A stretch of 64,000 nucleotides of DNA from a virus: positions 32,001 through 96,000 of IMG/VR virus record IMGVR_UViG_3300005673_000003. The stretch is one strand, 5' to 3'. How positions within the stretch are numbered: position 1 is the first letter of the stretch; every line of letters begins with the position of its first letter. Made by a program: the position numbers and the translations under genes. The notes below the pieces were generated by a model. The model saw nothing but the letters and a program-made list of their open reading frames with translations. It searched no databases and was not told where the DNA came from. This document shows positions 3,001 through 46,623 of this stretch, in pieces.

Positions 3001-4156
3001 TCTTGGCGCGAGTAGTGGGAGCAGCAAGGGAGGTAAAAACTGTTCTTAATGCAGTACCTGCCATACTGCCTTTAATCCCTGCATTCGATAGCAGGGCAGT
3101 CATAGCAGCGGTTTGCTCCAAGGTAGCTCCGTAGCTCTGAGCAGAAACACCCGCATACTTCAGCGTTTCGCCCAAGTCTGCTACTTCAAGCTGACCCGCT
3201 CCGGCAGCGTAGGCTAACACATCCGCGACATGGTTTGCTTTCCCTGCCTGCAACTGGAATTGACCCAAAGTGGAGACGGTAATATCGGTGGCTTGAGCTA
3301 ACCCCAGATTTCCGGCAGCGGCCAGGTTTAGCGTGCCTCCGATCGCAGCCATTTGCTGATCCACCTTGTACCCAGCTTGGGCCAGTAGCACAAAACCGCT
3401 AGCAGCTTCAGAGGCAGAGAATCGAGTTTCCGCGCCCAATTGCTTTGCTTTGGTGCGGATCTTATCCATATTGTCAGCGGTTGCCTGGAGCGGATCCAGA
3501 ACCGCTTTCACTTGCAGCATCTGATCATCGAAGCTCTTGAAGACATTGAAGCTATCAATGCCAGCGCCAATCAGAGGAGCAGCAACTTGCATCCCGGTAT
3601 CAGCAATACTTTGAGCAACCCCTTGCCGACGCTGAGCAATTACGGCAGAGCGTTGATTCTCATGCAAATCAATCTTGTCGCCTGCTATCCGCTGCTCCCG
3701 CTGCAACTGCGCTCTAAATTCGCGCTCCGCTGCTGTATCCCCCTGGATTTGCAACTCCAGCCGCTTCAATTCAGCGATATACTCAGCAACCGATTGCTTA
3801 GCCTGATGGAATGCCTTAGCATCCCCAATGTCTCCAAAATCGATATTTCTAGATTCTGCTCGGAGCGCTCGGAATTCCCCCTTGAGTGGCATCAGAGCTT
3901 TCCCAACAGAAGAAAGCGCGGTTCCAGTATGAGCAATATTGTTCGCTGCCTGCTTAGCGGCAGTCCCTGCTCCCTGGAAGGCAGACTTTAGCCCAGAGCC
4001 TAGATCTGATGATTTGACAATGGTAGCAACCCGCTTTACAGCATCCTCGATATTTTTTAGGCCGCGCTCTGATTTATCCATATTGCTGAGAGCGGCTGCT
4101 CCCAACTCGAAATCGAAGACCGCTTGTAACCCATATCTATCTTGATTGTCAGCCAT
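1..4156 (-). CDS. Phage tail tape measure protein, TP901 family (3' end runs off the window)
   Basis: Absent from the ORF track because there is no stop in the window. ATG at 4156 (MADNQDRYGLQAVFDF...). The minus frame carries the TP901 core (ETRFSASEAASGFVLLAQAG...DLGETLKYAG...NAGIKGSMAGTALR), then Ala/Gly-rich helices and a Pro-rich tail. Confidence 0.93.
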   Translation of the reverse strand, partial: MADNQDRYGLQAVFDFELGAAALSNMDKSERGLKNIEDAVKRVATIVKSSDLGSGLKSAFQGAGTAAKQAANNIAHTGTALSSVGKALMPLKGEFRALRAESRNIDFGDIGDAKAFHQAKQSVAEYIAELKRLELQIQGDTAAEREFRAQLQREQRIAGDKIDLHENQRSAVIAQRRQGVAQSIADTGMQVAAPLIGAGIDSFNVFKSFDDQMLQVKAVLDPLQATADNMDKIRTKAKQLGAETRFSASEAASGFVLLAQAGYKVDQQMAAIGGTLNLAAAGNLGLAQATDITVSTLGQFQLQAGKANHVADVLAYAAGAGQLEVADLGETLKYAGVSAQSYGATLEQTAAMTALLSNAGIKGSMAGTALRTVFTSLAAPTTRAKSAMAELGVETVDDTGKLKSVDVVLGELNRSMAGLTEAEKIQKMKSIFGTEGSSAATYLASHTKDIRSMTRDALASSQGEGAAKRQAGIMESGIGGSMRSLSSAIEGLKIQFMEALNPAIKTTVDTISQLIRTFLSLPDPIKNSIAIAATLTAGIASLAVVLGTAAAAFFGLQAAIAEAGIASTVMRTGLIPLTGFFQTVTVAIGEQGLMGALVALGGGFTGLATTVTGFITGALALIFNPVTLAIGAILGLYAAIEYLTPGINVLGTVLSAIVAPLGFVWGLVKGIAEGIYQGLKPAIEVATVALSPFTGAMQAAFGGIGEAVGMAIASFTKMAASGEIVGQMIGRAIAFPFMILPSIANAAIDSIKTLWRIFAGWLTDILMAVPNSIKDSFENIIPPFLRKKEDAREIKTAVAQPLAEVVEQAPLTGKIPGMAMVPVVDLSGVTDKINQFFNQQTPALAPALAAPVPAPGNPVINTGTPEAPKFTFPQIEMPPIPAPSVDLAGITGQINQFLQQTIPGLPAPVLPAPVIPEQSVTPVVTQVIAQQAASIQANAPLVQAAITQLVGAVKATWDAGIKQAELTPIGKAVETGVQPLIDKLKERLSGVFELATGFSAKFSGALDGISKTMSGLSFGVGLFGIASLGAFSPMLLILGGIALTVLAIATNFLGLRTVLGGVIQIIGSLGRGIYEIIQGLVQTAKGVVQIFTSIGSAIRGDFSAIQEAAHLAFSGILRIGQGVANALTGVFRGAAQLLQGVFEGLEGIIRGTFGAIAITFKAPAASLQFIGKTGQAVFHFIESSASAAAALMASVLAAPEAAWKGFMSLLDQIQQKFRNLVSSISTAPAKAVETVKSKFGFGKRATVVETLEAPKVSTEVPHAPDVLTAKPVPTPAPVQPPAQLLTTPHSPSLTPRPTPNLALPSEPTLPALAKPVNNQSIIRLANSPIEAPKLLPPAVSKIEVKPPDTHQALNALTKLEHEVTGRQTRMLASTNQAVSSVGVAL

Positions 4157-4171
4157 ACTGCCCCAGCACGC

Positions 4172-4210
4172 AAAAAATAAGCACCGCAAAGAGGGTGCTC
4201 CTTGCAGTGC
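4172..4210 (-). terminator. Intrinsic terminator in the leader of the tape measure gene
   Basis: Minus strand GCACTGCAAGGAG-CACC-CTCTTTGCGGTGC (G:U pairs) followed by TTATTTTTT. A TATAAT lies upstream at 4261-4266. Confidence 0.6.
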
Positions 4211-4847: not shown

Positions 4848-6689
4848 TTAGTAGCTCCACCTGCGCCTTGGGGAACCCGGCAAGCCGTTAGCTCCGGGCA
4901 CCCCGATAGCGTCCAAGTGTATGAACGAATTTGGAGAAATTGCTACTCCCCCCTCCCATGATTTCGCATAATCCGCATGAATCCGGCTCATTTTTGGGTG
5001 ATAAAAATCCACTGCGCTGCCAGTCGTATGCGGCCCGGACAGGCCAGAACTAGACACCCTAGCATTCTCTCTGGGAGGGCGATACCAGGAAGTGACTTCG
5101 ATTCCTGCACCATATTTCTGCTCGATAGCAATCAGGTTTTGAGCGGCCAGGATGATCCCTTTCATCACCGACTCTGATTCAGGCACCCTTTGCCCATTAC
5201 GGGTTGCATCACCCCATGTCCACTTCCCGCCAGGAACGATCGCATCTTTAAGGTTGACCTGGCCCCACTTCGGCACCTGGATATTTCCGGTTGGATGCGG
5301 AGAGGTTGGCGAGGTAGTCACCACCGTAGCACTTACCATCGCCTTATCATTGGGACTCCAGCCCTGTACTGTTACCGCTCCGTAGCCGCTCTGGAGCTGA
5401 TAGGGCGTTTTCTTGGTGATAGTTGGAGGCCGGATAAAAGCATTCCGGTGCTCCTGCCAAGACAGAACCAATCCGGTTGATTCCCCCTGCCCTGGCCCAA
5501 CCTGTTTGATGGTATTCCCTTCGGCAATGATCACATCGCCTTTAAGTGCAGCCTCCCTGACTGCGGCAGATAGAGCGCTTTGAGACATCGCAATCACGCC
5601 AGCATCCCCCGTTTTATTGCCCTGGGTAGCCGCAATATATTTGAGATCTGGAGTCAGAGCAGTTACCGTATCAAGTACGCCGCTTGTAGGCTGGCCCGAT
5701 TTCCCAAGGGCAGCGTCAGCCGCTTTTTTCTGCTGCTCTAATGCTTTCCCTTGGGTGGTAGAGGTATCAACCGATGATTGCGCTGTAGAAGCTTTGGGAG
5801 GGGTAATAGGGGAGGTGTTAGCATTCTGCCCTCCAGTACCAGAGCCAGCGCTGAACAGGTCAGGGGATGCGCTGCTAATTGATAGATTTCCAGTAGTGGG
5901 AGCCGCGATAGTATTCGCAGGGTTGAAAGTCTGCAAGCTGGCTCCCTGAGCTACTTTAAGGGTGCTCGGATCTGCGCTGGTGAATGAATCCTTATCAACA
6001 GGCTTTTCTCCAGTAGCAACCACGGTGGAAATGGTGGAGTTACCCAAAGTTGCCGAATTATCAACCAATTCCAGGATTACTCCATCGGGAAACTTGCGGC
6101 CCACTCGGTATAGCTTGCCTGAGAATATGGTTTGCACTTTATCGGGTGGGTATCCCAGCTCGATCGCCACATCAGAGCCGATATTAGCGTTGATCCTGCT
6201 CCAGAGCGAACCATCTAAGCTTTGCTCTGTACTTTTACTTTGAGGAGTATTCGCCTGGGTAGTGCTGGCGGCTGGCTTGCCTTCGTCAGGTTTTCCGGTT
6301 TGATTCTGCCCAGCATTATTCGGTAAAGCGGGAGGGATAGCGGCTGGCGGCTGGTTGGTAACAGCTTGAGGATTGTCAGTCGTGCGAGTCTCCCCTGATG
6401 AATCATTTAGCACCACGCATACTTCCGAGTACTGGCGCGTGCGAAGGGAGATGACTGGCTCCCCCAGAAAATCACCCCTCAAATTAGAGAATGATAGGTT
6501 GCCTACTTGGATCCGGAGTAAATAAGTATAACGCCCCTCTTCCCGGTTCTGGGAGGAAGGGCTGGCAGGTTTATTAGCTGTGGTAGCAGTCGATTTTGAT
6601 GCGGCTGCGGCTGATGATTGACTTAAACTGCTTGGCTTTACTGGTTGCGTCGTTGTTGTAGCAGGCTGAGCAGCGACCTTATCAGCCAT
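4848..6689 (-). CDS. Baseplate hub/gpD-like tail protein with C-terminal peptidase M15 domain
   Basis: IELGY...IFSGKLYRV is a gpD-like motif. The C-terminus TSWYRPPRENARV...H...AVDF...FIHLD is the Zn peptidase M15 signature. The gene lies next to the tape measure. Confidence 0.75.
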   Translation of the reverse strand: MADKVAAQPATTTTQPVKPSSLSQSSAAAASKSTATTANKPASPSSQNREEGRYTYLLRIQVGNLSFSNLRGDFLGEPVISLRTRQYSEVCVVLNDSSGETRTTDNPQAVTNQPPAAIPPALPNNAGQNQTGKPDEGKPAASTTQANTPQSKSTEQSLDGSLWSRINANIGSDVAIELGYPPDKVQTIFSGKLYRVGRKFPDGVILELVDNSATLGNSTISTVVATGEKPVDKDSFTSADPSTLKVAQGASLQTFNPANTIAAPTTGNLSISSASPDLFSAGSGTGGQNANTSPITPPKASTAQSSVDTSTTQGKALEQQKKAADAALGKSGQPTSGVLDTVTALTPDLKYIAATQGNKTGDAGVIAMSQSALSAAVREAALKGDVIIAEGNTIKQVGPGQGESTGLVLSWQEHRNAFIRPPTITKKTPYQLQSGYGAVTVQGWSPNDKAMVSATVVTTSPTSPHPTGNIQVPKWGQVNLKDAIVPGGKWTWGDATRNGQRVPESESVMKGIILAAQNLIAIEQKYGAGIEVTSWYRPPRENARVSSSGLSGPHTTGSAVDFYHPKMSRIHADYAKSWEGGVAISPNSFIHLDAIGVPGANGLPGSPRRRWSY

Positions 6690-8594: not shown

Positions 8595-8854
8595 GAGCCT
8601 GGATTAGAGTTGTTTCCGTAAACACTGTCAAACCCAGCTTGCCTTGCCGCTGCACATCCCCCCAGATACTTATTGTAAGTGCCAGCAGTATTGGTGCCCC
8701 ACATCGCATCACGAACAGCTAGGGTTCTTAAATAATTGGTTTGGCGATATTGTTGAACGATTTCGCCTGCTAGTTCTCGCCTTGCTCGCTGAACTTGCTG
8801 TAGCTGATCTCCGTACTCTTCGATAATTATTCTTTCTAGGTCGTTTTCTAACAT
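8591..8854 (-). CDS. Hypothetical protein
   Basis: GGAG RBS and a helical-looking sequence; overlaps the tail of the HNH ORF. Confidence 0.55.
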   Translation of the reverse strand: MLENDLERIIIEEYGDQLQQVQRARRELAGEIVQQYRQTNYLRTLAVRDAMWGTNTAGTYNKYLGGCAAARQAGFDSVYGNNSNPGS

Positions 8855-9248
8855 CTCTTTCGCTCCCGGCAGAAATCAATCGATTATTCGATAGCTGCTT
8901 AAATCCTAGCGTAAGTTTGAATATCCATACATCCGTATTATGGTTATTCAATGCTGGATCTACTTTGCAGCGAACCCAAACATCCTTCCGATGGGAACGC
9001 TTATGACAACGTAGGCAGAGCGGGAAAACATCTCTCCCTGGCACTTCGCGGCCAGCGATCGCTCCCCACTCATCCTTGTAGCGAACATGATGAATTTCTG
9101 CGCTCTTACGCTTCAGACAATTGCAGCACTTATTCCCGGTCAACCGATGACTAAACGCTACGATATACCGATAGTTTTTAGCATATCGAGCTTCATAAGC
9201 TAGATCTAAAAGAGTCGATGATAGAGTTGCTTGCGCCACATTAATCAA
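8709..9248 (-). CDS. HNH endonuclease
   Basis: CCNC...EIHHVRY...PLCLRCHKRSH. Confidence 0.8.
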   Translation of the reverse strand: MINVAQATLSSTLLDLAYEARYAKNYRYIVAFSHRLTGNKCCNCLKRKSAEIHHVRYKDEWGAIAGREVPGRDVFPLCLRCHKRSHRKDVWVRCKVDPALNNHNTDVWIFKLTLGFKQLSNNRLISAGSERDVRKRPRKNNYRRVRRSATASSASKARTSRRNRSTISPNQLFKNPSCS

Positions 9249-9463
9249 TCAATTTCTATCGAAGGCTGGCGAGGAGTATTCTCCTGGTTGGGAGCTGGAA
9301 AGTATGAGAATACAATCATCAGCAATACAGTGCTAATCAAAGCGATCGTCACGACGACATCCCAGAGATTCGGCTTCGCTTTTTTCTCCTCGACGGCTTC
9401 CCACTTAACAATGCCGTCTTTGTTGATAGTTACCTTGAATTTTTGCTCTTTTTTCTCCGTCAT
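9245..9463 (-). CDS. Single-pass membrane protein
   Basis: TM segment VVVTIALISTVLLMIVFSYF. Confidence 0.6.
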   Translation of the reverse strand: MTEKKEQKFKVTINKDGIVKWEAVEEKKAKPNLWDVVVTIALISTVLLMIVFSYFPAPNQENTPRQPSIEID

Positions 9464-9471
9464 AATTGCCC

Positions 9472-10107
9472 CTATAAACGATTCAAAATATTAGCCATTG
9501 CCTGCCATTGCCAGGGGTGTTGCTGCATAACCGGATCATTCAAAATCGTCTTAGCGCACGCTTCAGCAAATCCCTCGCCAATCTTCCAGGCTGCATAGCT
9601 GGACATCTTTTTCTCCCAATAGTAAGCTCTGCCAAACTCGCTATTAATCGGCACTCCAGAGGGGCCATGCATTTCTAAATCTAGAACGTGGCAGTACTCG
9701 TGAATAAAGTAAGTGGGAATAATTGCACTCTTAAGGGTATTCGGATAAATCCTGAGTTCGCGTTTCATGGAAATGATAGATAGATACTTCGGAGTAGGAG
9801 GGATGTAGTCATCTATCATTTCGTCTTTAGGATGCAAAACTACTTTATTGACATAGCTTTGCATCTTACGGGGGAGTAGGGAGGTAGCTTGACAGTTCGC
9901 ATCTTTGAACTGCTGGGGAAGCCTGTTATCAAACGCGATGCCGCACTGATAAGTAAAAATCGGCTCAGCATCAGGGAGCGATTGAGCGGGGAGAGAGGGA
10001 GGAGCAGGCATTGCTGATTCCAAAGGATTTTCCATGGATCGGTTAACCTCAAAAGAAGCTAGTCCAGCCAAACAAGCAATGCCTGCAATCACTCCAAACT
10101 CTTTCAT
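9472..10107 (-). CDS. Exported zinc metallopeptidase (HExxH, lethal-factor-like)
   Basis: N-terminal signal/TM; HEYCH followed by SSYA...EGFAEA. Confidence 0.7.
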   Translation of the reverse strand: MKEFGVIAGIACLAGLASFEVNRSMENPLESAMPAPPSLPAQSLPDAEPIFTYQCGIAFDNRLPQQFKDANCQATSLLPRKMQSYVNKVVLHPKDEMIDDYIPPTPKYLSIISMKRELRIYPNTLKSAIIPTYFIHEYCHVLDLEMHGPSGVPINSEFGRAYYWEKKMSSYAAWKIGEGFAEACAKTILNDPVMQQHPWQWQAMANILNRL

Positions 10108-10111
10108 GACA

Positions 10112-12025
10112 CTACGCCTTCAACATTGCTGGCAGATTCTTGAGCAGAAACTCCATATCCTTAACACTGACTTCCAGGCCGGAAAAACCCTGATAAGCCT
10201 TCTGAATTTCTTCAATTTTTGGAGTAGAACCAATATCATGCTGAGCTTGGAGCCAAAGACTTAACGCTTTGTAAGGATCTCCCTTAGCTCCCTTCAGAAA
10301 AGGCGCATAAGGGTCACTACCGCTAGGCTGATTAGACGCTTGAGGCTGGGGAGCATTAATCGATTGATTATTGCTTCGAGGGGGAGTTGGGGGAGCAGTA
10401 GGGGTGAACCAAAAATCCTCTATCTCTTGCTGGGTAAATTCCGGCGAGGTATTCGCAACGGGCTTAGGAGGGGGAGGGGGAGGGGGAGCCTGGGGAACTT
10501 GCTGAGCGGGAACCTCTACCGTCATTTGGCTTGCGGCAGGGGGAGGGGAATCTGGGGGAGCGCTGGCAGATTTCGCAGGGGTAGCAGGAGCGGCAGGGGT
10601 GCCCGGAATGATACTCCCCGTCCAATTGCTCCCAGGCACCCAGTTAAGCCGCAACTCTTCCAGGCCATTAATCGGAGGAGTAGGCAGGTAGCCCATATCG
10701 ACGGGCAGCGAGGTAGCAAATCCGGCTGGCCTACCAACCTGCCGATAGATAGATTGAGCATACTCAGCCGCGCTATCTGGGATAGTGCGAGGAGAGAGTT
10801 TCATTTGAATCTTATCCTGAGTCATTTCAGCACCCATGATGATATGGGCCTGACGTAAAGCCTTCCGCTTGATGCCCATCTCTTCGAGCGTTAGAGTGTG
10901 CATCATTAGCCAGAAATAGATTCCGAACTTTTTAGCTTCTGTTGCCAGTTTATTTAGAGTCTTATTGACCTCCTCCCGCTCGTCGTCATCCAGCTCCTCT
11001 AATTGGTTGGTGAATTCATCAACCCCAACAACAACAGGAGGGTAGTTAATATTATTCTTTTTGCGATACTCAAACAGCTCTCGAACACGCAAAAGAAACT
11101 GATTAAGATCCTTTGCATCGCCTTTGAAAATACCACTTTGAACTGCCTTGGGAACGCTCTGCATTAATGGGATTCCAAGCCAGTTTGATCGAAATTCAGG
11201 AGTCGAGCCATTGCCGTAATGGCTATCGAACACATACAGCACCAAATTAGGCTCAGCAGTAGCCCATTGATAGAGCGCATAATGCGCGGCCACTGTTTTC
11301 CCTTCCTGGGAGTTCGCCGCAAAAACGCAATGCTCTTTGGCGCACTTAGCATACAACTCGTAGGCATCCTTGGGCCGCGCTAGCTCAGCTTGGTAAGCGG
11401 CTACTTCATCAAAGGAGGTCAGGTAATTTTGCTCCGGCATCCCTCCACCTGGCGCGGCTTCTAAAGCGGGTTGCTGATAAGGCAGCTCAAGCAGTCCATG
11501 TAATTGGAATTTTTCAAGGTAGCGAGGCTGCTTATACTCCGGCAGAGTCGAGATATAGCCTGCTAGATTATCCTCTGCGCTAATCATATCCACTGCATCA
11601 TTGAAAGCTTGGTTGTGAGCCAGCTTCTTGGCAAGCGAGATTTGATCTGCTCTCCGTAACTTGGAATGCGTCTCTTCTTGTGTTTGCTGGAGGTAGGAGA
11701 CATAGGAAAATGCGCCAGCGCTAATCGTGCTGGTAGCCAGCAGAAGGAAATTGGCAGCTTTGGGAATATGAAAAATAGGGGTCAGGATTAGTGATGCTCC
11801 GTAAGTGACGATCGCTAATCCTGCCAGCTTCCACATCGCAGAGCGCTGATCAGCAATCGATTGCCGGATAGCGTCAGTTTTAGGATCTCGAATGTAGCCC
11901 GTCTCATCGTAGACCTGATTAGCTCCTGGTATTGGTAGATAAGGATTGCCCTCAAACTGAGTGGAGCGGTAGTAATGGGGATTTTGAATTTCCTGATAGT
12001 AAGGATCGTATCCGTAAGTCATCAC
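10112..12025 (-). CDS. Membrane-anchored FtsK/HerA-superfamily ATPase with Pro-rich C-terminal linker
   Basis: Two N-terminal TMs; Walker A ANSQEGKT; YVFD strand; Walker B VVVGVDE; LATEAKKFGI. Confidence 0.75.
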   Translation of the reverse strand: MMTYGYDPYYQEIQNPHYYRSTQFEGNPYLPIPGANQVYDETGYIRDPKTDAIRQSIADQRSAMWKLAGLAIVTYGASLILTPIFHIPKAANFLLLATSTISAGAFSYVSYLQQTQEETHSKLRRADQISLAKKLAHNQAFNDAVDMISAEDNLAGYISTLPEYKQPRYLEKFQLHGLLELPYQQPALEAAPGGGMPEQNYLTSFDEVAAYQAELARPKDAYELYAKCAKEHCVFAANSQEGKTVAAHYALYQWATAEPNLVLYVFDSHYGNGSTPEFRSNWLGIPLMQSVPKAVQSGIFKGDAKDLNQFLLRVRELFEYRKKNNINYPPVVVGVDEFTNQLEELDDDEREEVNKTLNKLATEAKKFGIYFWLMMHTLTLEEMGIKRKALRQAHIIMGAEMTQDKIQMKLSPRTIPDSAAEYAQSIYRQVGRPAGFATSLPVDMGYLPTPPINGLEELRLNWVPGSNWTGSIIPGTPAAPATPAKSASAPPDSPPPAASQMTVEVPAQQVPQAPPPPPPPKPVANTSPEFTQQEIEDFWFTPTAPPTPPRSNNQSINAPQPQASNQPSGSDPYAPFLKGAKGDPYKALSLWLQAQHDIGSTPKIEEIQKAYQGFSGLEVSVKDMEFLLKNLPAMLKA

Positions 12026-12031
12026 AGCCCC

Positions 12032-12331
12032 CTAACTTGATTGAGAGGCGATATACACCCCGATAGCTACAACGAAACCAAGAGCCATACACCCCAGGAA
12101 ACCAGGGATGCCAGCCGCAATAAAATCGCTCGGTCGGGCACGCACCCCTTTATTAGCCTTCAGTAGCACCATCATGACCAGCGAGAGGGCAAAGAATGCC
12201 AGGAATACGCCAATCAGAATCACATTGGTACCGCCGCTAAACTGCGGGAATGCCCTGGCGATGAATCCGAGCAATGTAACTAAACTAATTCCTGTGAAGA
12301 ATAAGCCCAGGAATGGGAAAGCCTTAACCAT
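12032..12331 (-). CDS. Three-TM membrane protein
   Basis: Three hydrophobic helices; same operon as the ATPase. Confidence 0.75.
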   Translation of the reverse strand: MVKAFPFLGLFFTGISLVTLLGFIARAFPQFSGGTNVILIGVFLAFFALSLVMMVLLKANKGVRARPSDFIAAGIPGFLGCMALGFVVAIGVYIASQSS

Positions 12332-12333
12332 AG

Positions 12334-12837
12334 CTACATTCCTCCATTTGGATCGTAATCATTAATCAGGTAAAGGTTTTGATCAAACGAGTAACTGTAG
12401 CTATCCGTCACCGGATTGTAGGAGTTCGCCATCCGGTTCATTGCGGCCATGTACCCTTGCATATTCTGAGCATTTTGCTCAGAATATGCAAGGGGTTTCT
12501 TGCAACCATTCAGGATGGCTGCAACTCGCTGTTGATGCTGTTGACGGATAGCCTCTGCTCGGCTTACTGCATTTTGCCCCCGTTGTAGTTCAGCCTGGAT
12601 ACTCTCTTGAGTTCCGTCGAACATAGGGTAAGGATACTGGTTGTAGTCGATTGGCTGGGAATCGTCCTCATACTCCCAGTCGATAACCTCTGCGTCAATC
12701 ACGTCGCTATTCTGAAAGGATTGCGATTGCGTTGGCCGCGCCTGCGGCGAGGATGGTACACCCTGAGAATCATCTAAGTCTGGAGGATTGCAGAGGTTTT
12801 TAAGTACACCCAAAAATGAAAGGCTATTCGCGCTCAT
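12334..12837 (-). CDS. Hypothetical Q/Y-rich protein
   Basis: AAGGAG RBS; operon context. Confidence 0.7.
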   Translation of the reverse strand: MSANSLSFLGVLKNLCNPPDLDDSQGVPSSPQARPTQSQSFQNSDVIDAEVIDWEYEDDSQPIDYNQYPYPMFDGTQESIQAELQRGQNAVSRAEAIRQQHQQRVAAILNGCKKPLAYSEQNAQNMQGYMAAMNRMANSYNPVTDSYSYSFDQNLYLINDYDPNGGM

Positions 12838-12903
12838 AATTTAATGCTCCTTGATTGCTTGACCGATTAGAAATTGATTGATTATTGCTGGTACAAGAAG
12901 GGG

Positions 12904-13374
12904 CTACAGGAAGTGATTGAGAGCATCTCCATAGATAGCGTTATAGCCCTCCGCTTTGGCTTGATGACCGCCAAAGACAAAGTTTTGCCGTTGGTAAGAC
13001 CGATTAAATTTCTCCTGATGACCCGCGATCTGATTATTAACTCGCATCATTGCCGCCGCATGGTTCACTTCAATTCCGACTTGCCGAGCAAGCGCATTGG
13101 CTTGCTGAATCCTGGCTTGAGATAAATCCTGCAATAACTCTGCTGTTGCCTGAGATTTCGCTGCATCCTGCATGGCCTGATGGACGCTCTGAGGAGTCGT
13201 GGTATAAGGCAGAGATGCAATACCACCGATTTCACCTAGCCAGGTTGGGGCATTTGCTAATTGCCCAGGATTGTAATTAGGCAAGCCAGTAACTATAGAA
13301 GATCCACTACTCCCACCTACAAGGGAGCTAAACATGCCGCTTACAGTTCTAACAAGATCTAATCCAAAGGCCAT
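12904..13374 (-). CDS. Hypothetical coiled-coil protein
   Basis: AGGAG RBS; A/Q-rich helix. Confidence 0.7.
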   Translation of the reverse strand: MAFGLDLVRTVSGMFSSLVGGSSGSSIVTGLPNYNPGQLANAPTWLGEIGGIASLPYTTTPQSVHQAMQDAAKSQATAELLQDLSQARIQQANALARQVGIEVNHAAAMMRVNNQIAGHQEKFNRSYQRQNFVFGGHQAKAEGYNAIYGDALNHFL

Positions 13375-13405
13375 TACTCTATCTCCTGGTTAAATTTCTA
13401 GATTT

Positions 13406-14143
13406 CTATCGAACTTGAGCGGTATAACCACCGCTGGGGGTGCCTACAGTTTGATAGGGTGCTGTCGGTGGAGGCGCGACTGGTGCTATCGGCTGCTGGC
13501 CGCCATAAGGATCAGGGGTAGTGGGAACCGGAGGTAAGCCAGGAGCGGGAGCCTGGTATGGATATGAAGGCTGAGCAGGCTGACCATAGGGAGGCTGATA
13601 CTGTTGCTGCAATGACTTTGTTGCTTCTTTAGCTGCATCGCCGCACCCAAATAAGCAATTCACCGAAACACTTGGAGGAGGGCGCTTAGCTGCCTCGACT
13701 GCGGCTTGAGCATTAAGCTTGGCAATCTCCATCATTTGATTGGATGGGGATGCACTGGTCAGGTAAGACAAGAACCATGCTCCACCGCACCCCAGAATGA
13801 CAATCCCAGCCAATCCGAACGTCCAGAGCTTCTCTGGAGCATGAACAGGAGTATTTTGAATAGGGCGCGGCTGCAAGCGTTGCTGAGCCATTACCTGCTC
13901 ATAAACGGGCCTGGGCACCATTCCCACTCCAGGCATCTCAACCATCTGCCCTGCCGCTTGTCGCTGCATTAACGCGGCTTGCTGCGCTTGCATCTGACGA
14001 GGATCATACCCAGGAGGCAGAGAAGGTACTTGGGCTATATTCGCTGGATAGCGAGGGGGAGGAGGAGCCTCTTCGTCAGCCAATTGCGGTTGTTGAGGTA
14101 GAGCTGTTTTGAGTTTTTCCAGAATTTCCATTAATTGCTCCAA
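13406..14143 (-). CDS. Pro/Gln-rich single-pass membrane protein
   Basis: Central TM (LWTFGLAGIVILGCGGAWFL) flanked by low-complexity P/Q/Y. Confidence 0.7.
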   Translation of the reverse strand: MEQLMEILEKLKTALPQQPQLADEEAPPPPRYPANIAQVPSLPPGYDPRQMQAQQAALMQRQAAGQMVEMPGVGMVPRPVYEQVMAQQRLQPRPIQNTPVHAPEKLWTFGLAGIVILGCGGAWFLSYLTSASPSNQMMEIAKLNAQAAVEAAKRPPPSVSVNCLFGCGDAAKEATKSLQQQYQPPYGQPAQPSYPYQAPAPGLPPVPTTPDPYGGQQPIAPVAPPPTAPYQTVGTPSGGYTAQVR

Positions 14144-14232
14144 ATACCGAGAGGGCGATCGCGATAATTACCAAAGCTGCAAGAATTTTGTAGAGAGCTG
14201 CCAACCAAGTTGGCTGACCAGGAAATAATCGA

Positions 14233-14835
14233 TCAATTAGTAGGTGCTCCGCCAAAGATTTGGGCAGATAGCTCTTTGCCCCGAGAACGAAAGTGGGTCA
14301 GCCTTGGCTGACTACCTCCCGCTTTATTCATAAATTTGTCTATGGTCAAGTCAGCAGTATTGAGAGCAATGCCTATCAATAAGTCCGAGTAGCCTTCTGC
14401 AAACTCATGACTTCCAGCTAAAAGCTCCTCTTTAATAACCGTGAGTTCTTGATCGACAATTCGAGCAATGTTCCTCATTCCATCCTGATTGCCGCCGCTA
14501 TCTTGCGCGTCTTGAGGTTGATCCCCCAAAGAAACTTCATCCGCTTTAACTAAGCCGCCAGCTTGAGCATCCTCAGCTTGAGGATTGCCAGCATCATCGC
14601 TTTTGCCGCTCTTCTTAGAATTAGATTTTGCTAGTTTGCTTTTGTTAGTCTGCTCCCGCTGATCATTGATTGATTGACCAAGAAGCAGAACATCCTCGTC
14701 ACCATTGATAACCCATCCTGCATCCAAGCATTTCTGGACTAGCTTTTCGTCGGCTTCTACGCCGACATCTGCAAGCTTGGCAATAATGTCTAAAGTGTTC
14801 ATAACCATTCCTTGAGTGCTACTGAGGCGATGCAC
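14233..14835 (-). CDS. Hypothetical protein, first gene of the ATPase operon
   Basis: ORF with likely start near 14808/14802. Confidence 0.7.
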   Translation of the reverse strand: MHRLSSTQGMVMNTLDIIAKLADVGVEADEKLVQKCLDAGWVINGDEDVLLLGQSINDQREQTNKSKLAKSNSKKSGKSDDAGNPQAEDAQAGGLVKADEVSLGDQPQDAQDSGGNQDGMRNIARIVDQELTVIKEELLAGSHEFAEGYSDLLIGIALNTADLTIDKFMNKAGGSQPRLTHFRSRGKELSAQIFGGAPTN

Positions 14836-14911
14836 CCGATTGGGGCACTGAACACACTCTAAACGGTTAAGATAAACCTGTCAACATGACAGGATAAAAA
14901 TATCTCGAAAA

Positions 14912-15220
14912 TCAATCGATTTTCTTGGTTCGCTTCCTGGCTCTCTTCGTCAAATTACCTGTCCGCTCAGCTTCAATCCTCCTGGCGCGGGCTATCTCGT
15001 AGATCTCCCGTTGCTGGGGAGGCATGATGTTATCCTGAGCATCCCAAGCCAAAAAGAGTGCATGAAGGTTATCCAGGTGATTTAGAAGCGACTGGGGAGG
15101 GCTTACTGGGTTTTCCTTCCTGAACCAATGCTGCACCCCATCAACGGTGTAGCCGCCAATCAAGTCAGCCAGCTCAGGGTACGTGAGCCGCCAATGCTCC
15201 TTGAATTCTTTCGGGTGCAT
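14912..15220 (-). CDS. HTH (XRE-like) DNA-binding protein
   Basis: LTYPELADLIGGYTVDGVQHWF; ATG immediately after the GNAT stop. Confidence 0.7.
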   Translation of the reverse strand: MHPKEFKEHWRLTYPELADLIGGYTVDGVQHWFRKENPVSPPQSLLNHLDNLHALFLAWDAQDNIMPPQQREIYEIARARRIEAERTGNLTKRARKRTKKID

Positions 15221-15222
15221 TA

Positions 15223-15936
15223 TTAGCTCAAGCTCCTGAACCGCTTTTGCAGAGCTTGAGGGGAGCAATCCTTAGCTCCATAGAGATCCAAGCCATCGGG
15301 CAGCTTAGAGCCTGGGGTAACTACCTTTAACCCAAATAGCTCCAATGCCTTGCGGCCCATTTCGGTCTGAGCTTGACCGTACATATAGCAGGGATAGGCA
15401 ATGTGCCCCGAATTCCTCCAAGCGCCGATCGCGCATCGCATCAAAGGCCGCGCCAGTCCAGCATTTCTCCACTTCTCGACAATCACAATGCCGCTAAAAT
15501 ACCAATGCTTCGCCCCATATTCGAGGCAATCCCATTCGCTAAACGGGAAGAGATCTTCCTCCCGGATTTCTCCAGCAATAAATTGAGCAGCCTGCTTCTC
15601 GCTCAAGGGATAAATGCCAAGAGATCCAACTATCCGGCCCCCAATTAGCAGGCAGCGGCCAGCGTTAGGGTATTGAGTCCACCATCGCTCAAAGCTCTCA
15701 AACTCAATTGAGTGATCCTGGTAAGCTTCTTTGTCTATCTCCCAAAGTTCCCGGAGCATTGATAGATCTTGTACTGCCGATACTTGGATCAGTGAAGGAG
15801 CGGATACGGTTTTCACTAGCTCTTCGCAGGCTGCATCCCTTGAGGATAGTACACTTGAACTCATTAGACTGACCGGGATATGAATGATTACCTTCATCAC
15901 ACTCGCTTTCGTCTTATCTGTCAATAATTGGGTCAA
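15223..15936 (-). CDS. GNAT-family acetyltransferase
   Basis: YFSGIVIVEKWRNAGLARPLM (motif A) and GRIVGSLGIYP. Confidence 0.7.
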   Translation of the reverse strand: MTQLLTDKTKASVMKVIIHIPVSLMSSSVLSSRDAACEELVKTVSAPSLIQVSAVQDLSMLRELWEIDKEAYQDHSIEFESFERWWTQYPNAGRCLLIGGRIVGSLGIYPLSEKQAAQFIAGEIREEDLFPFSEWDCLEYGAKHWYFSGIVIVEKWRNAGLARPLMRCAIGAWRNSGHIAYPCYMYGQAQTEMGRKALELFGLKVVTPGSKLPDGLDLYGAKDCSPQALQKRFRSLS

Positions 15937-16054
15937 CTATTCTGTCAAAAATATCTTAAGTTTCTGTTTATAGCTACTGACAAATTAAGACATTATTGGT
16001 AGAATCCTGGCATGATTACAGGATAAACCCCATCAATACAAGGGAACTACACCA

Positions 16055-16594
16055 ATGGGAAAAACTATCTACAGCATTGATAACGAATTGCAAATTTGCG
16101 ATTCAGCTTATATCCGAGTCCTCTGCGGATCACCTTCAGACCCAACCTGGGCAAAGTATCGGAGACTGGCAGGAGTGCCCAAAAAGGCTAAGAGAATCAC
16201 TCTGCGGCAAAGCTTCTTACTCTGGACGACTGCCAACCTATACCATAACGGGGAGAGGGGATTGACCCGCTTCAAAGTAGCATCGATCGCGAACGAGTTG
16301 CTCCAGGTACATCCAGAGGTAAGCGACTTGATGACGACGCTAGCCGGAGGGGATGGCATCGAAGGCCGCAATCTAGCGCAGGCTATCTCCAATTTAATCG
16401 GGAAAGAAGTATCAACCAGAACGCTTTACCGGAGGGGATCTGCACTCAGCCTCCCAAAGTTCCAGATGAATAAGCGGTACTCGCTGGAGCAGGTTCGCAG
16501 ATTTGCCGCCTCCTTCCCGGAGCGACAACCCAGACGGAAGCGCGCCCCAAAGAAGCGGCAGGAAAAAGAAGCTCCTGAAGCCAAAAGAGCTTAA
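16055..16594 (+). CDS. Basic putative DNA-binding protein
   Basis: LAQAISNLIGKEVSTRTLYR is HTH-like; K/R-rich; divergent from the GNAT gene. Confidence 0.55.
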   Translation: MGKTIYSIDNELQICDSAYIRVLCGSPSDPTWAKYRRLAGVPKKAKRITLRQSFLLWTTANLYHNGERGLTRFKVASIANELLQVHPEVSDLMTTLAGGDGIEGRNLAQAISNLIGKEVSTRTLYRRGSALSLPKFQMNKRYSLEQVRRFAASFPERQPRRKRAPKKRQEKEAPEAKRA

Positions 16595-16653
16595 CCCTAG
16601 CTCAGCACTTAATCGACTATCAATAATCAATCAATTTCACATCGGAGTCAGAT

Positions 16654-17229
16654 ATGAATCCAATCAAGAGCCTCTTTAAGTTTTTCCTCCAGATAGGCAT
16701 CCTGGGAGGGATTCTGATCGGCATGATGCACATGGTTAGCCAGAGTGACCAGAGACAAGCAGCAAAACTGGCCGCGCAGAGTCAACAATCCCAACAAGAA
16801 GGAAGACAGCAGGAGGGGCAAGGGGGAATAGTTACCGTGGTACCCAGCCCAGGCACTACGGTAACGCAACCTGGCGATAGCCGGATCATTATTCAGGCTA
16901 ATCCTACTCCTACCCCTCAAGCAATCGCGCCATCTCCGGTTGCACCAGCACCTATCCCCACTCCTGCTCCTACTCCTCAATCTCCTGCGCAAGGGATTGG
17001 AACCCCTATCTTCAGTCAACCAAATACATCTGCAGCAAATCAATCGGGCTACCTGCCCAGCCGCTCTCCAATCTCGTTACCCAGCAATCCACAAACCGGG
17101 CAACCCTATCGGCAGAACGGCATGATCTGGATTGTGTCTGGGGGGCAGTCAGGCTGGATCATGGAGGGAGCGATCGCTGCCCCTGCACCCGTAGCACCGC
17201 AGGCGGCTCAGCCCTATCAAGCTCTCTAA
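16654..17229 (+). CDS. Membrane-anchored Pro/Gln-rich exported protein
   Basis: N-terminal TM, PTP/PAP linker, C-terminal segment with SGWI. Confidence 0.7.
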   Translation: MNPIKSLFKFFLQIGILGGILIGMMHMVSQSDQRQAAKLAAQSQQSQQEGRQQEGQGGIVTVVPSPGTTVTQPGDSRIIIQANPTPTPQAIAPSPVAPAPIPTPAPTPQSPAQGIGTPIFSQPNTSAANQSGYLPSRSPISLPSNPQTGQPYRQNGMIWIVSGGQSGWIMEGAIAAPAPVAPQAAQPYQAL

Positions 17230-17310
17230 GCTCTTTTTTAGCTGTTCTAGATTTCTAGAAATCTGAATTTCTAGATTCGCAATAATCAATCAATTCATGG
17301 AGGTAAGAAG

Positions 17311-17643
17311 ATGCTGGGAAGATTGCTGGTGATTTTATTAGCTGTGCCGTTTTTAATCGTCCTGACCGCTGGCGTTGCTGGGGTGTTCAAGGCTGGCAAG
17401 TATGCAGAGGTTGCTAAGGATGCTGGCAACCTCCTAGATAGCATCGGCAGGTTAGATTCTGGCGGCTTGCCAGTATTTGATCAGCCTTACGGGTCGAATC
17501 GGGTTGCAATCCTGCCTAAAGGCTCTCAGGTGCAAGTTAGTGCCTACAAAGAAAACGGGAGGGTATTTATCCAATCTGGCAGCACTTCTGGATGGGTGCA
17601 GGAAAGCGCTCTAACTCCGGTGACTGGCTCATCTCCCCGGTGA
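17311..17643 (+). CDS. Membrane-anchored SH3b domain protein
   Basis: TM, then VFDQP...VAILPKGSQVQV...SGWVQESAL; GGAGG RBS. Confidence 0.7.
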   Translation: MLGRLLVILLAVPFLIVLTAGVAGVFKAGKYAEVAKDAGNLLDSIGRLDSGGLPVFDQPYGSNRVAILPKGSQVQVSAYKENGRVFIQSGSTSGWVQESALTPVTGSSPR

Positions 17644-19603: not shown

Positions 19604-20350
19604 ATGAGGGATAGGGATATGCAGACAATCACAGCAAAAATTGCAACCAAGCTTAAGAGGCGGCCCATCGATTCATCCCAGTTGCAACCCAACGAATTTA
19701 TCTCAGTGCCTGTCGGGAAGAGCTATGGAGTAGATAAAATCTCTCCCATTGAAAACGGGCATTACAAAGTAACTCTGGCAGCTAATAGCGGTACCTTCTT
19801 TGTCTTTGGTGGACATTGGGATGGGATAGCTACCCAGTTAATCTCTAAAAAGCAAGCAGAGATTATCTTCGGGAATCCAATCTACGATAACGAGCTGAAC
19901 GATTTGAATGCCTGCTTAAATCGCTACCAGATCAATACAGCTCTAAGGATGCGGCATTTTATGAGCCAGATTGCCCACGAATCGGGTGGTCTGCGCTGGA
20001 TGAAAGAGCTGGCAGATGGCTGGGATTATGAATGGAGGAGCGACCTGGGAAATAATCGGCCCGGTGATGGCCCCAGATACAAAGGGGCAGGAGTAATTCA
20101 GCTCACCGGACGGGCAAATTACCAGGCATTCAGCAAAGCGATCGGAGATCCCAGGGTTATGGAAGGTTGCGATTATGTTGCCTCCACCTATCCGTTTACC
20201 AGCGCTGGATTTTTCTGGAGCCGGAACAGGTTAAACGATTTGTGTGACTCTAGTGCTTCGGTTGAGCAAATCACCAGAGTCATTAATGGCGGAGTTAACG
20301 GCTTAGACGATCGTATTCACTACTACAACCTGGCCTGCAAGGTTATTTAG
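19604..20350 (+). CDS. Endolysin, glycoside hydrolase family 19
   Basis: FMSQIAHESGGL...E...LGN...GDG.RYKGAGVIQLTGRANY...ITRVINGG.NGLDDR. Confidence 0.92.
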   Translation: MRDRDMQTITAKIATKLKRRPIDSSQLQPNEFISVPVGKSYGVDKISPIENGHYKVTLAANSGTFFVFGGHWDGIATQLISKKQAEIIFGNPIYDNELNDLNACLNRYQINTALRMRHFMSQIAHESGGLRWMKELADGWDYEWRSDLGNNRPGDGPRYKGAGVIQLTGRANYQAFSKAIGDPRVMEGCDYVASTYPFTSAGFFWSRNRLNDLCDSSASVEQITRVINGGVNGLDDRIHYYNLACKVI

Positions 20351-44314: not shown

Positions 44315-44353
44315 GGTATTCCCTGAGATGAAGATTTTTAGATTTCTAGAATT

Positions 44354-45074: not shown

Positions 45075-45120
45075 GATTTTAGATTTTTAGATTTTGCAAT
45101 TTCTAGATTTCTAGATTTTA
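45075..45120. repeat. Octamer (ATTTYTAG) array upstream of parA; putative centromere/operator
   Basis: TTTTAGATTTTTAGATTTTGCAATTTCTAGATTTCTAGATTTTA. Similar arrays at 44332, 46547, 49617, 17245 and 13393. Confidence 0.7.
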
Positions 45121-46535: not shown

Positions 46536-46623
46536 AACTCCACGTCCTAGAAATCTAAAAATCTAAAAATCTGAAAATAAAGGGGGAAAGCGTTATCCCC
46601 CTCTTAATCAATCAATTCGCAAC

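Follow-up and report, generated by a model that had tools for sequence, protein, structure and literature searches.

A candidate membrane DNA-motor cassette in phages and plasmids of filamentous cyanobacteria

The DNA analysed here, which we call the window, is a stretch of 64,000 nucleotides from a viral replicon. The source replicon is a 148,728-bp tailed-phage genome with direct terminal repeats, rated 100% complete; it is the complete tailed virus of a cyanobacterium. It encodes its own TerL and portal, as well as a 4281-aa tape measure. Given this TerL and portal, the ATPase discussed below is not the packaging motor. No integrase or resolvase gave a Pfam match on the replicon, which does have a ParA with iterated repeats, and the phage may therefore persist as a plasmid. 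The cassette that concerns us spans window positions 8709-16594 and consists of a leftward operon and a divergent HTH gene (Table 1). All the genes listed in the original prediction for this region are found where it had placed them.

Table 1. Genes and repeats of the cassette and its rightward neighbourhood, in window coordinates
Feature	Position	Strand	Basis and remarks
HNH endonuclease, 179 aa	8709..9248	-	Pfam HNH E = 1.6e-3, 19 bits; last gene of the leftward string
Single-TM protein, 72 aa	9245..9463	-	Hydropathy; not conserved in related loci
HExxH protein, 211 aa, N-terminal hydrophobic segment	9472..10107	-	Sequence; candidate exported metallopeptidase
Membrane-anchored ATPase, 637 aa	10112..12025	-	TM hairpin, Walker A/B, profile and fold
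3-TM protein, 99 aa	12032..12331	-	Hydropathy; conserved partner immediately upstream of the ATPase
Q-rich protein, 167 aa	12334..12837	-	Variable filler between two conserved partners
Soluble, mostly helical protein, 156 aa	12904..13374	-	The ATPase's most widely co-conserved partner
P/Q-rich 1-TM protein, 245 aa, 29% P+Q, TM central	13406..14143	-	Hydropathy
Acidic low-complexity protein, 200 aa	14233..14835	-	Homologue in L004 only
Small protein with basic tail, 118 aa, possibly DNA-binding	14912..15268	-	No Pfam match
Weak GNAT-like protein, 237 aa, first leftward gene	15223..15936	-	Acetyltransf_1 E = 3e-4, 21.4 bits
Three direct repeats 12 bp apart, TCTGTCAA-like	15917..15952	.	Tandem Repeats Finder; divergent intergenic region, candidate operator
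HTH-type protein with basic tail, 179 aa	16055..16594	+	Divergent from the cassette; candidate regulator
P/Q-rich protein, 191 aa, N-terminal TM, 28% P+Q	16654..17229	+	No homologues in related loci
SH3b-looking protein, 110 aa, N-terminal TM	17311..17643	+	No homologues in related loci
GH19 endolysin	19604-20350	+	phrog_181 at 4e-43; ends the co-directional string

The largest gene of the operon had been read as a 2-TM ATPase of the FtsK/HerA type, and both profile and fold comparisons uphold this. In an AF2 model (pLDDT 80), the N-terminus forms a TM hairpin at about residues 64-110, followed by a stalk helix that extends to residue 158. One FtsK/HerA-type RecA domain occupies residues 218-465, with a Walker A GKT (K242), a Walker B VVVGVDEF (D335/E336) and an invariant R320; K242 and D335/E336 are nearly invariant among 70 sequences. 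A disordered, Pro-rich linker (467-570) leads to a C-terminal three-helix, HTH-like domain (573-635). The protein is a membrane-anchored P-loop protein of the FtsK/HerA superfamily with a single ATPase domain.

Its family is small and uncharacterised (phrog_38189, which matches the ATPase at 2e-12). Compared with the PDB, the family profile finds HerA (2e-15), EssC (7e-14), TcpA (3e-7) and FtsK (5e-7). The top Foldseek structures are the FtsK motor, TcpA and STIV2 B204 (probability 1.00), and one row is a SIR2/HerA complex. EssC/EccC and HerA are the strongest profile matches, both among solved structures and in a library of 1.8 billion proteins. The original prediction had named TraB, TcpA, VirD4 and FtsK as the motors to compare; the ATPase groups with HerA, EssC, TcpA and FtsK, and meets TrwB/VirD4 at the P-loop only. 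A Pfam search of the 637-aa protein matched no family. FtsK_SpoIIIE (PF01580) found neither the ATPase nor, at E <= 1, anything in a six-frame scan of the genome; weak matches to it occur in only 6 of the 70 relatives (best 8.5e-5), and to DUF87 in only 4. Since the nearest relatives include the protein-translocating EssC/EccC and defence-type HerA, membership of the superfamily does not fix the substrate of the ATPase.

For the last ~60 residues a winged, gamma-like domain had been put forward as the structure that would favour DNA transfer. The domain does fold confidently (pLDDT 84) into an HTH-like three-helix bundle, but the beta wing is absent and the fold matches are weak. Almost all of its VIA structural neighbours are HTH or winged-helix DNA-binding domains, but with Z <= 5.4, and Foldseek on this domain returned nothing at E < 2.8. 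Hence the model gives a weak indication of an HTH-like fold.

The core of the cassette is made up of the ~150-aa protein, the 3-TM protein and the ATPase. It is carried by contigs of temperate phages, by lytic myophages of Nostoc/Anabaena, by Nostoc megaplasmids and by a prophage of Phormidium. Gene order is conserved across six loci of metagenomic or genomic origin, and likewise in pNPUN02 and two lytic myophages, Elbi and YongM. Homologues of the 99-aa 3-TM protein lie immediately 5' of the ATPase gene in the related loci L002, L003, L004, L012, L013 and L014, and a 91-95-aa multi-TM protein holds this position in Elbi, YongM and pNPUN02. For the 156-aa protein, jackhmmer finds matches in L002, L003, L004, L012 and L014 and in the lytic phages Elbi and YongM, and pairwise comparison with a 146-aa protein of pNPUN02 gives E = 2e-4; searches of Pfam, the PDB and the Atlas gave no match for it. 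The candidate regulator, for which Pfam and the PDB also gave no match, has homologues divergent from the cassette in L002, L003, L004 and L014.

The remaining genes are less constant. The original description of the leftward P/Q-rich, 3-TM and small TM proteins holds (29% P+Q, three TM helices and one TM helix, respectively). No sequence homologue of the 245-aa P/Q-rich protein was detected in related loci; a ~100-aa 1-TM protein occupies its slot in Elbi, YongM and pNPUN02. Neither the 167-aa Q-rich protein, which has no family match, nor the 237-aa GNAT-like protein has a homologue in related loci. Homologues of the 118-aa protein lie close to the cassette of L012 and L013, where they are on the other strand. 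An exported HExxH peptidase had also been predicted: a HEYCH motif and an N-terminal hydrophobic segment are present, but the peptidase assignment is weak (Peptidase_M90 E = 0.097). This 211-aa protein has no homologue in related loci. In L012 a DUF922 protein lies one gene further downstream of the ATPase, a position comparable, not identical, to that of the HExxH protein, and the two have no detectable homology.

The HNH nuclease is a recurrent component that the original prediction had not tied to the module. In four of seven loci it comes directly after the ATPase or forms one protein with it: the homologues in L004 and L014 begin at the ATPase stop codon, and the ATPase of P0023/L012 has an HNH domain fused to its C-terminus. 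The adjacency in the window, L004 and L014 and the fusion in P0023 tie the motor to DNA. Since many HNH genes are selfish homing elements, the adjacency could be incidental.

A tblastn search of 50,697 phage records gave matches in Nostocales phages only, and one of 72,556 plasmids gave matches in Nostoc plasmids only. The synteny looked for on other cyanobacterial plasmids does exist, the same core being present on four Nostoc megaplasmids, e.g. pNPUN02. Cassette-bearing Nostoc plasmids are typed by MOB-suite as conjugative (MOBV and MPF_T), and pNPUN02 has no T4SS genes within ~8 kb on one side of the cassette and 58 kb on the other. Phormidium tenue carries a prophage copy. Within a sample of 401 cyanobacterial genomes, all 14 with a family match are HetR_C-positive, compared to 101 of 401 overall (p = 2e-9), an association confounded by shared ancestry and genome size. 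These 14 genomes are all of 5.1-8.9 Mb, and several of the 14 matches span the ATPase core only. In this sample, the family is confined to HetR-positive, i.e. filament-type, cyanobacterial genomes.

Temperate relatives have the cassette immediately upstream of HNH and terminase. In lytic myophages it adjoins replication genes, at a fixed place across the whole lineage. Its occurrence in strictly lytic phages means that its role is not tied to a plasmid-like lifestyle. The ORFs called 'DNA translocase FtsK' in myophages N-1, A-1, A-1(L), Elbi, YongM and Dfl-JY23 are true, distant members of the family (21-23% identity). These Nostocales ORFs have the TM hairpin too, together with a ~150-aa partner and, just 5' of the ORF, a multi-TM protein of 91 aa, but they are ~525 aa long, lack the long Pro-rich linker and adjoin helicase and polymerase genes. 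YongM ORF73 has been called 'essential' from bioinformatics only (PMC11356776).

The rightward operon had been regarded as part of the same module. Its HTH gene is indeed conserved with the cassette, but its P/Q-rich and SH3b-like genes are not. The C-terminus of the latter looks like SH3b when its sequence is read, but Pfam gave no match. Since these two genes lead into the GH19 endolysin, they look like a lysis or envelope set, and the 191-aa and 110-aa proteins probably belong with the downstream lysis genes. We also abandon the suggestion that octamer arrays or a 12-mer serve the module as loading sites, as both are genome-wide motifs. There is indeed an octamer array at 17245-17277 (8 bp x 4.1 copies, Tandem Repeats Finder), but its octamers are members of a TAGATTTY family dispersed over the genome, with the largest array upstream of parA; the 12-mer AATCAATCGATT has 32 occurrences across the genome. 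Beside the ATPase gene, Tandem Repeats Finder found no clt-like repeat array.

The lack of VirB4 and relaxase noticed in the window extends to the whole 148,728-bp replicon, with no T4SS, VirD4 or relaxase located elsewhere on it. The VirB4-class and relaxase models PF03135 (CagE_TrbE_VirB), PF12846 (AAA_10) and PF03432 (Relaxase) were all unmatched on the complete replicon, PF03432 being the one relaxase family covered by the scan. PF02534 (T4SS-DNA_transf) had no match in the genome either.

How does this compare with known systems? The best conjugation-related match is TcpA of Clostridium perfringens pCW3 (PDB 6o1w-6o1z), which, like the ATPase, has two N-terminal TM helices followed by one FtsK-type domain, in ~500 aa. 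The similarity (profile 31.8 bits and 3e-7 against the PDB; fold 6e-5) is confined to ~150 residues around Walker A and B, whereas the cyanobacterial-element family has a stalk, a Pro-rich linker and a C-terminal helical domain of its own. TcpA acts together with the relaxase TcpM, a VirB4 (TcpF) and proteins like VirB6 and VirB8, all of which are missing from the phage replicon.

Streptomyces TraB (pIJ101, pSVH1) is an FtsK-like membrane-associated motor with a C-terminal DNA-reading domain that acts without a relaxase or T4SS (PMC4447253). The TraB/Spd system and the cassette share a single motor, small membrane-protein genes, a divergent regulator and residence on elements of a multicellular filamentous host. 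However, TraB passes Pfam models of the FtsK_SpoIIIE type and the cassette ATPase does not, and no homology to SpdA, SpdB or KilB is seen. The TraB system has an 8-bp clt array by the gene and a winged C-terminal domain; no such array adjoins the cassette ATPase gene, and the modelled C-terminal domain, with its HTH-like but weak fold matches, lacks a wing. Its carriers, unlike those of the Streptomyces system, include tailed phages. We reject a close TraB homologue: the family HMM scores 16.9 bits over ~150 residues of pIJ101 Tra (hhalign probability 91%).

Two other classes are near by sequence profile. EssC/EccC likewise have two TM helices and a stalk ahead of the ATPase, but they contain three FtsK-like domains and export WXG100-type proteins. 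A type VII ATPase was rejected, the model having one ATPase domain and the true EssC-like proteins in the match list showing two to three FtsK_SpoIIIE stretches. HerA is soluble and has a HAS-barrel; a HerA helicase was rejected too, as the N-terminus of the ATPase is a TM hairpin and a long helix. With one ATPase domain following two N-terminal TM helices, the protein has the layout of the DNA-handling TcpA and TraB, not that of the three-domain T7SS ATPases, which counts in favour of a DNA motor.

We would give an even chance to the hypothesis that the region is a conserved membrane DNA-motor cassette of filamentous-cyanobacterial mobile elements, working as follows. The motor, made of an N-in TM hairpin, a ~50-aa stalk, a RecA core, the Pro-rich linker and a small HTH-like domain, would be anchored in the cytoplasmic membrane. 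Its partners would be the 3-TM protein, the 1-TM protein and the ~150-aa helical protein; often it would be coupled to the HNH nuclease, and the divergently transcribed HTH protein would control the cassette. It may oligomerise as its relatives do. Its substrate would be DNA: the motor would translocate the DNA of the element at the cytoplasmic membrane or through it, and the small membrane proteins would be its partners there.

What would such a motor be for? By analogy with TraB/Spd, we tentatively rank first a virion-independent spread between the cells of a filament, doubtful as it is. More doubtful is the specific form of this idea, in which a relaxase-free single motor would pump phage or plasmid dsDNA out of an infected or carrier cell into neighbour cells via filament septa, as a cyanobacterial counterpart of TraB/Spd conjugation and intramycelial spreading.

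Exclusion or destruction of incoming DNA would be the second-ranked purpose. A membrane motor and an HNH nuclease would seize and cut the DNA of an incoming rival phage or plasmid, protecting the resident element by superinfection exclusion or inter-element defence. The best PDB profile matches are HerA-type ATPases, several of the matched entries being anti-phage defence complexes, and SIR2/HerA stands among the Foldseek rows; HNH adjoins the ATPase or is fused to it; and a competition function would fit a cassette that lytic phages, temperate phages and plasmids all carry. We nevertheless hold such a role to be unlikely. No PADLOC-DB 2.0 defence model matched any of ten cassette proteins at E <= 0.01, the HAS-barrel of HerA is missing from the model, and the fixed site by replication genes in lytic myophages, together with the fixed order across elements, looks core rather than accessory.

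The ATPase could instead power a T7SS-like export or insertion of the P/Q-rich proteins and the metallopeptidase, for envelope remodelling or lysis. EssC/EccC are among the closest known sequences, the 99-aa 3-TM protein has the size of a holin, two loci encode an HExxH or DUF922 protein downstream of the ATPase, and the GH19 endolysin is 4 kb away. Lysis cassettes often sit just upstream of HNH and terminase, which is where the temperate relatives have this cassette. However, T7SS ATPases have three ATPase domains and not one, the peptidases are non-homologous between loci and absent from most, and the HNH link points to DNA. Lytic myophages have the cassette among replication genes, and megaplasmids, which do not lyse cells, carry it as well. 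A holin-endolysin cassette as such was rejected: there is no conserved wall hydrolase inside, the HExxH protein has no homologue in related loci and the endolysin lies outside. Taken together, we find an export or lysis role rather improbable.

There is little likelihood, in our judgement, that the ATPase is a membrane-tethered motor for segregation or replication anchoring, clearing or positioning copies of the element at the septum in the manner of FtsK/SpoIIIE with no intercellular movement of DNA. The FtsK-type fold, the ParA with its iterated repeats and the proximity to replication genes in lytic relatives are consistent with it, but a gamma-type winged helix is lacking, and the dedicated small membrane partners and the restriction to filamentous hosts would be left unexplained. 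Moreover, the host's own FtsK is already available; to our knowledge, every cyanobacterium has one. Least probable is a VirD4/TrwB/TraG-type coupling protein (T4CP) feeding a T4SS and relaxase whose genes lie in the chromosome of the host or in another plasmid of the same cell, which would suit the two-TM-plus-ATPase architecture and the conjugative typing of the Nostoc plasmids, but the TrwB match (E = 2e-3) covers the P-loop only, the model has no all-alpha domain, T4SS-DNA_transf, VirB4 and relaxase are unmatched on the complete phage replicon, the ~8 kb on one side and 58 kb on the other of the cassette on pNPUN02 hold no T4SS genes, and lytic phages carry the cassette too.

Should the cassette indeed move DNA, it would represent the first transfer apparatus of the FtsK type outside actinomycetes that does without a T4SS, and the first on tailed phages. 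It would then bear on the spread of phages and plasmids in multicellular cyanobacteria, among them the bloom-forming and the symbiotic Nostocales. Tractable carriers are at hand in Anabaena PCC 7120 with A-1(L), Elbi or N-1, and in Nostoc punctiforme with pNPUN02. Even if its role is in exclusion or in remodelling the envelope, the cassette is among very few gene sets common to the lytic phages, temperate phages and megaplasmids of one type of host.

The genes lie as the original prediction laid them out, in a leftward and a rightward operon, and all of their reading frames are confirmed (see the table). We use the term cassette for the leftward gene string around the 637-aa ATPase together with the divergent HTH gene. 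When the cassette and rightward proteins were searched with Pfam, NCBIfam and PADLOC, only a weak GNAT and a weak HNH match were obtained, plus marginal matches at chance level. Their sole PHROGs match was that of the ATPase to phrog_38189, a group whose function is unannotated. The partners of the ATPase that were queried gave no family, PDB or Atlas match (the PDB profile search covered the 156-aa and 179-aa proteins, the Atlas search the 156-aa protein).

Genes and repeats of the phage (window coordinates unless marked)
Feature	Position	Direction	Remark
HNH protein	8709-9248	leftward	weak match, E 1.6e-3
One-TM protein	9245-9463	leftward	
Protein with hydrophobic N-terminus and HEYCH	9472-10107	leftward	
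ATPase	10112-12025	leftward	
3-TM protein	12032-12331	leftward	
ORF	12334-12837	leftward	
156-aa protein	12904-13374	leftward	
P/Q-rich protein	13406-14143	leftward	29% P+Q, one TM
ORF	14233-14835	leftward	
ORF	14912-15268	leftward	
Weak GNAT	15223-15936	leftward	GNAT match, E 3e-4
HTH-like protein	16055-16594	rightward	basic tail
N-terminal TM protein	16654-17229	rightward	28% P+Q
N-terminal TM protein	17311-17643	rightward	SH3b-looking, without Pfam support
Wall hydrolase 1	4848-6689		613 aa, C-terminal M15 peptidase; adjoins tape measure
Wall hydrolase 2, GH19 endolysin	19604-20350		phrog_181, 4e-43
Wall hydrolase 3, two-domain endolysin	L009 (another piece of the phage genome) 4339-5994		551 aa
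Tandem 8-bp TAGATTTY repeats	45080-45119, 44330-44355, 46550-46565, 13394-13410, 17245-17277		

The ATPase has only six close relatives among 5.8 billion proteins. When 1.8 billion cluster representatives were searched with a profile, 185 proteins were recovered, typically of about 500 aa, and a scan of IMG/VR with family patterns gave no confirmed relative. K242 and R320 are invariant in an alignment of 70 sequences, and G241, D335 and E336 are nearly so. As a single sequence the ATPase finds no match in the PDB; the family profile alone gave matches. With the 70 aligned sequences as profile, the solved structures matched were HerA (2e-15), EssC/EccC (about 1e-13), TcpA (3e-7) and FtsK (5e-7), while the match to TrwB was limited to the P-loop (2e-3). 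The AlphaFold model (pLDDT 80) begins with a TM hairpin that has an outer loop of three residues. From there a long helical stalk leads to the RecA core, which is compact and spans about 250 residues; a Pro-rich linker, modeled as disordered, then joins the core to a small C-terminal domain made of helices. Foldseek neighbours of the core are the FtsK motor, TcpA and the STIV2 B204 packaging NTPase. Compared with reference proteins from plasmid records, the family HMM scored 31.8 bits with TcpA and 16.9 bits with TraB of pIJ101, and gave no score with the VirB4-type TcpF. Because of these profile, Foldseek and HMM matches, the protein is a member of the FtsK/HerA superfamily, and calling it FtsK-like was correct. 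Membership of Pfam FtsK_SpoIIIE, of TraB and of VirD4 is ruled out. It is not a T7SS ATPase, having one ATPase domain versus three, nor is it HerA, since it is without a HAS-barrel.

A gamma-like winged helix at the C-terminus had been named as a feature that would support DNA transfer. Folded alone, the C-terminal domain (pLDDT 84) is a bundle of three to four helices without beta strands, and a gamma-type wing is not present in the model. Foldseek found nothing significant, with no match below E = 2.8. In an exhaustive structural comparison its neighbours were almost all HTH or winged-helix DNA-binding domains (CENP-B, Topo VI-A, MarR-type, CadC, ArgR, OmpR/PhoB, MCM WH, LexA and ScpB), at a best Z of 5.4, and values up to this one are common for small helical domains according to the comparison tool. 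The expected fold is thus only partly recovered: the neighbours are weakly HTH-like and the wing is missing. Given the low Z and the lack of a significant Foldseek match, a DNA-binding HTH is no more than a plausible reading of the modeled domain.

Iterated searches of six loci that carry relatives of the ATPase (L002, L003, L004, L012, L013 and L014) place the 3-TM protein directly upstream of it in every case. Five of the six loci also have the 156-aa protein, and the 179-aa HTH protein is placed divergently in four. The relatives' contigs are rich in HIP1, with the exception of L013. The presence on them of genes for integrase, Rad52, repressor, terminase, portal or Mu-F marks them as temperate tailed phages. 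The L012 contig, at 145 kb, is about as large as this phage, and L014 is a prophage region in the filamentous cyanobacterium Phormidium tenue FACHB-886. The six-frame match of the family profile in that strain (L015 / L014 9416-10930) reads through one TGA, so that this copy may be decaying or may contain a sequence error; the stop-free L014 frame that we used begins about 70 codons downstream of the start of that match.

A tblastn search of 50,697 phage records gave six matches only (N1, A1, A-1(L), Elbi, YongM and Dfl-JY23), all of them phages of Nostocales hosts. The homologue in Elbi and YongM, about 525 aa long, has helicase and polymerase genes as neighbours. A multi-TM protein of 91 aa comes before it, and a few genes upstream are a 1-TM protein and a protein homologous to the 156-aa one. 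We found no paper in the literature on this ATPase family in cyanobacteria; ORF73 of YongM has been annotated 'DNA translocase FtsK' and picked as 'essential' by comparison only (PMC11356776). Among 72,556 plasmids, matches were confined to four Nostoc megaplasmids. One of them, pNPUN02 of Nostoc punctiforme, encodes a protein of 513 aa whose alignment with the family runs over the full length and takes in the C-terminal domain (hhalign 7e-41); it is preceded by a TM protein of 95 aa and a protein related to the 156-aa one. Hence the core of the cassette does recur on a cyanobacterial plasmid, where synteny had been proposed as a check.

The parent record is 148,728 bp long, has direct terminal repeats of 150 bp and is rated 100% complete. 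HIP1 (GCGATCGC), whose enrichment is a hallmark of cyanobacterial DNA, occurs in 20 copies versus 1.3 expected. The window's DNA was found in four DNA runs only, all from one bioreactor-sludge metagenome study, and no RNA run is listed among the sequencing runs containing it. The replicon is a tailed phage. Outside the window it encodes a gpA-type large terminase and a portal of its own, which rules out the ATPase as the packaging motor. The tape measure is encoded on the minus strand by one uninterrupted frame of 4281 codons (genome 23344-36189, the N-terminal part being window 2-4189) and matches PhageMin_Tail at 5.6e-48. To our knowledge this is among the longest tape measures, and the tail would be exceptionally long if its length scales with the tape measure as in other siphophages. 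Immediately upstream of the tape-measure gene lie two small frames (genome 36279-36799) that may encode tail assembly chaperones.

The phage genome also encodes ParA, DnaB and primase, as well as a Gp3-like recombination directionality factor (window 49652-50677), and has no Pfam match to a tyrosine integrase or serine recombinase. With this gene content the element could be a phage-plasmid, or else a phage that is strictly lytic. Several other genes can be mentioned. Window 36441-39653, 40650-42317 and 42497-43747 encode an LPD29+WGR protein of 1070 aa along with a MoxR-type AAA ATPase and its VWA partner. On pNPUN02 (L029 30690-33328) a WGR protein likewise lies beside an AAA ATPase, along with DUF2997 and DUF1257, which points to a common gene pool of this phage and Nostoc megaplasmids. 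A TnpB gene (OrfB_IS605 / Cas12f-like TNB) and an RRXRR protein are found at window 32004-33209 and 34419-35582, and L012 too has an RRXRR protein near its cassette. A TGT-like protein fused to DUF6884 (L005 10309-11664, with the same genome coordinates) and a GTP cyclohydrolase-domain protein (L008 12824-14491, genome 124824-126491) suggest, from their domains, that the phage may make a 7-deazaguanine-type DNA modification.

All named hosts of the family, Nostoc, Anabaena, Dolichospermum and Phormidium, are filamentous. The family was also sought in 401 evenly sampled cyanobacterial genomes, of which 14 match at E <= 1e-15, several of them across the ATPase core only, and all 14 are genomes of 5.1-8.9 Mb. 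HetR is largely confined to filamentous forms, and its hood domain (HetR_C) was chosen as their marker. Of the 401 genomes 101 have it, among them every one of the 14 (hypergeometric p = 2e-9, by a test that ignores shared ancestry and with genome size as a confounder).

What, then, might the cassette do? Its ATPase has one FtsK-type domain behind a TM hairpin and ends in an HTH-like tail; a nuclease, dedicated small membrane proteins and a divergently transcribed regulator go with it. Among members of the superfamily, those that handle DNA (TcpA, TraB) come nearest in anatomy, and for this reason we favor, with middling confidence, a membrane DNA motor. Among its possible purposes we place movement from cell to cell along the filament first, as a tentative suggestion of low probability.

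The nuclease partner bears on the substrate of such a motor. In the window the HNH gene lies two genes downstream of the ATPase. Its homologues in L004 and L014 start at the ATPase stop codon; the longer HNH frames that overlap the 3' end of the ATPase there are longest-frame artefacts. In P0023, the ATPase of L012 (8001-9842), an HNH domain is fused in frame to the C-terminus (Pfam HNH, residues 561-603), and the P0023 cluster is found on nine contigs. Altogether an HNH is adjacent to, near or fused to the ATPase in four of seven loci (the window, L004, L014 and L012). HNH genes can be selfish insertions, and so the link is only suggestive of a DNA substrate. Beside this nuclease stands a second reading, in which the cassette would exclude or destroy incoming DNA; we consider it unlikely.

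A role in protein export or in support of lysis is improbable. The phage has three wall hydrolases, and one of them ends the gene string into which the two anchored proteins of the rightward operon lead. These two are read as part of a lysis or envelope set, not as analogues of Spd. Of the rightward genes only the first, encoding the HTH protein, is conserved with the cassette. The proposal that the rightward operon belongs to the module is thus supported for this gene and not supported for the P/Q-rich and SH3b-looking ones.

For a membrane DNA motor, two motifs had been proposed as loading sites. The near-palindromic 12-mer AATCAATCGATT occurs in 32 copies genome-wide versus about 0.02 expected (in the window at, for example, 8874, 17799, 18087, 18423 and 45067). 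For parA and for three genes of the rightward string (starting near 17853, 18110 and 18458, each behind an exact copy) its position is immediately 5' of the Shine-Dalgarno sequence. With such numbers and such positions it is rejected as a loading site; it is probably a phage-specific promoter, operator or translational signal. The octamers (TTTCTAGA/TAGATTTY) were rejected as sites specific to the module, their largest array (window 45080-45119) lying immediately upstream of the ParA gene (44354-45052, minus strand). TAGATTTY occurs in 30 copies versus 9.7 expected, with four clusters versus 0.03. Iterated repeats of this kind are typical of partition or operator sites, and the array upstream of parA looks like a candidate type-Ib partition centromere or operator. 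Both motifs are genome-wide and neither is specific to the cassette. No repeat array follows the ATPase gene, either in the window or on pNPUN02. Three repeats spaced 12 bp (15917-15952) in the divergent promoter region would be a better candidate operator for the HTH protein than either motif. That the cassette serves septal segregation is very doubtful.

Least credible of all is a coupling protein serving a type IV secretion system encoded elsewhere: the lack of VirB4 and relaxase, seen earlier in the window, extends to the whole replicon, which has no match to VirB4 (PF03135), AAA_10, Relaxase (PF03432) or T4SS-DNA_transf and so, by these models, no VirD4-like ATPase with such a system and relaxase at another place, and no T4SS genes are found on pNPUN02 within about 8 kb to one side of its cassette and 58 kb to the other, some 66 kb in all.

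Whatever the function of the membrane DNA motor that we favor, the carriage of the cassette by strictly lytic myophages argues against a role tied to plasmid life alone. Spread, exclusion or the handling of the genome during infection would each agree with it.
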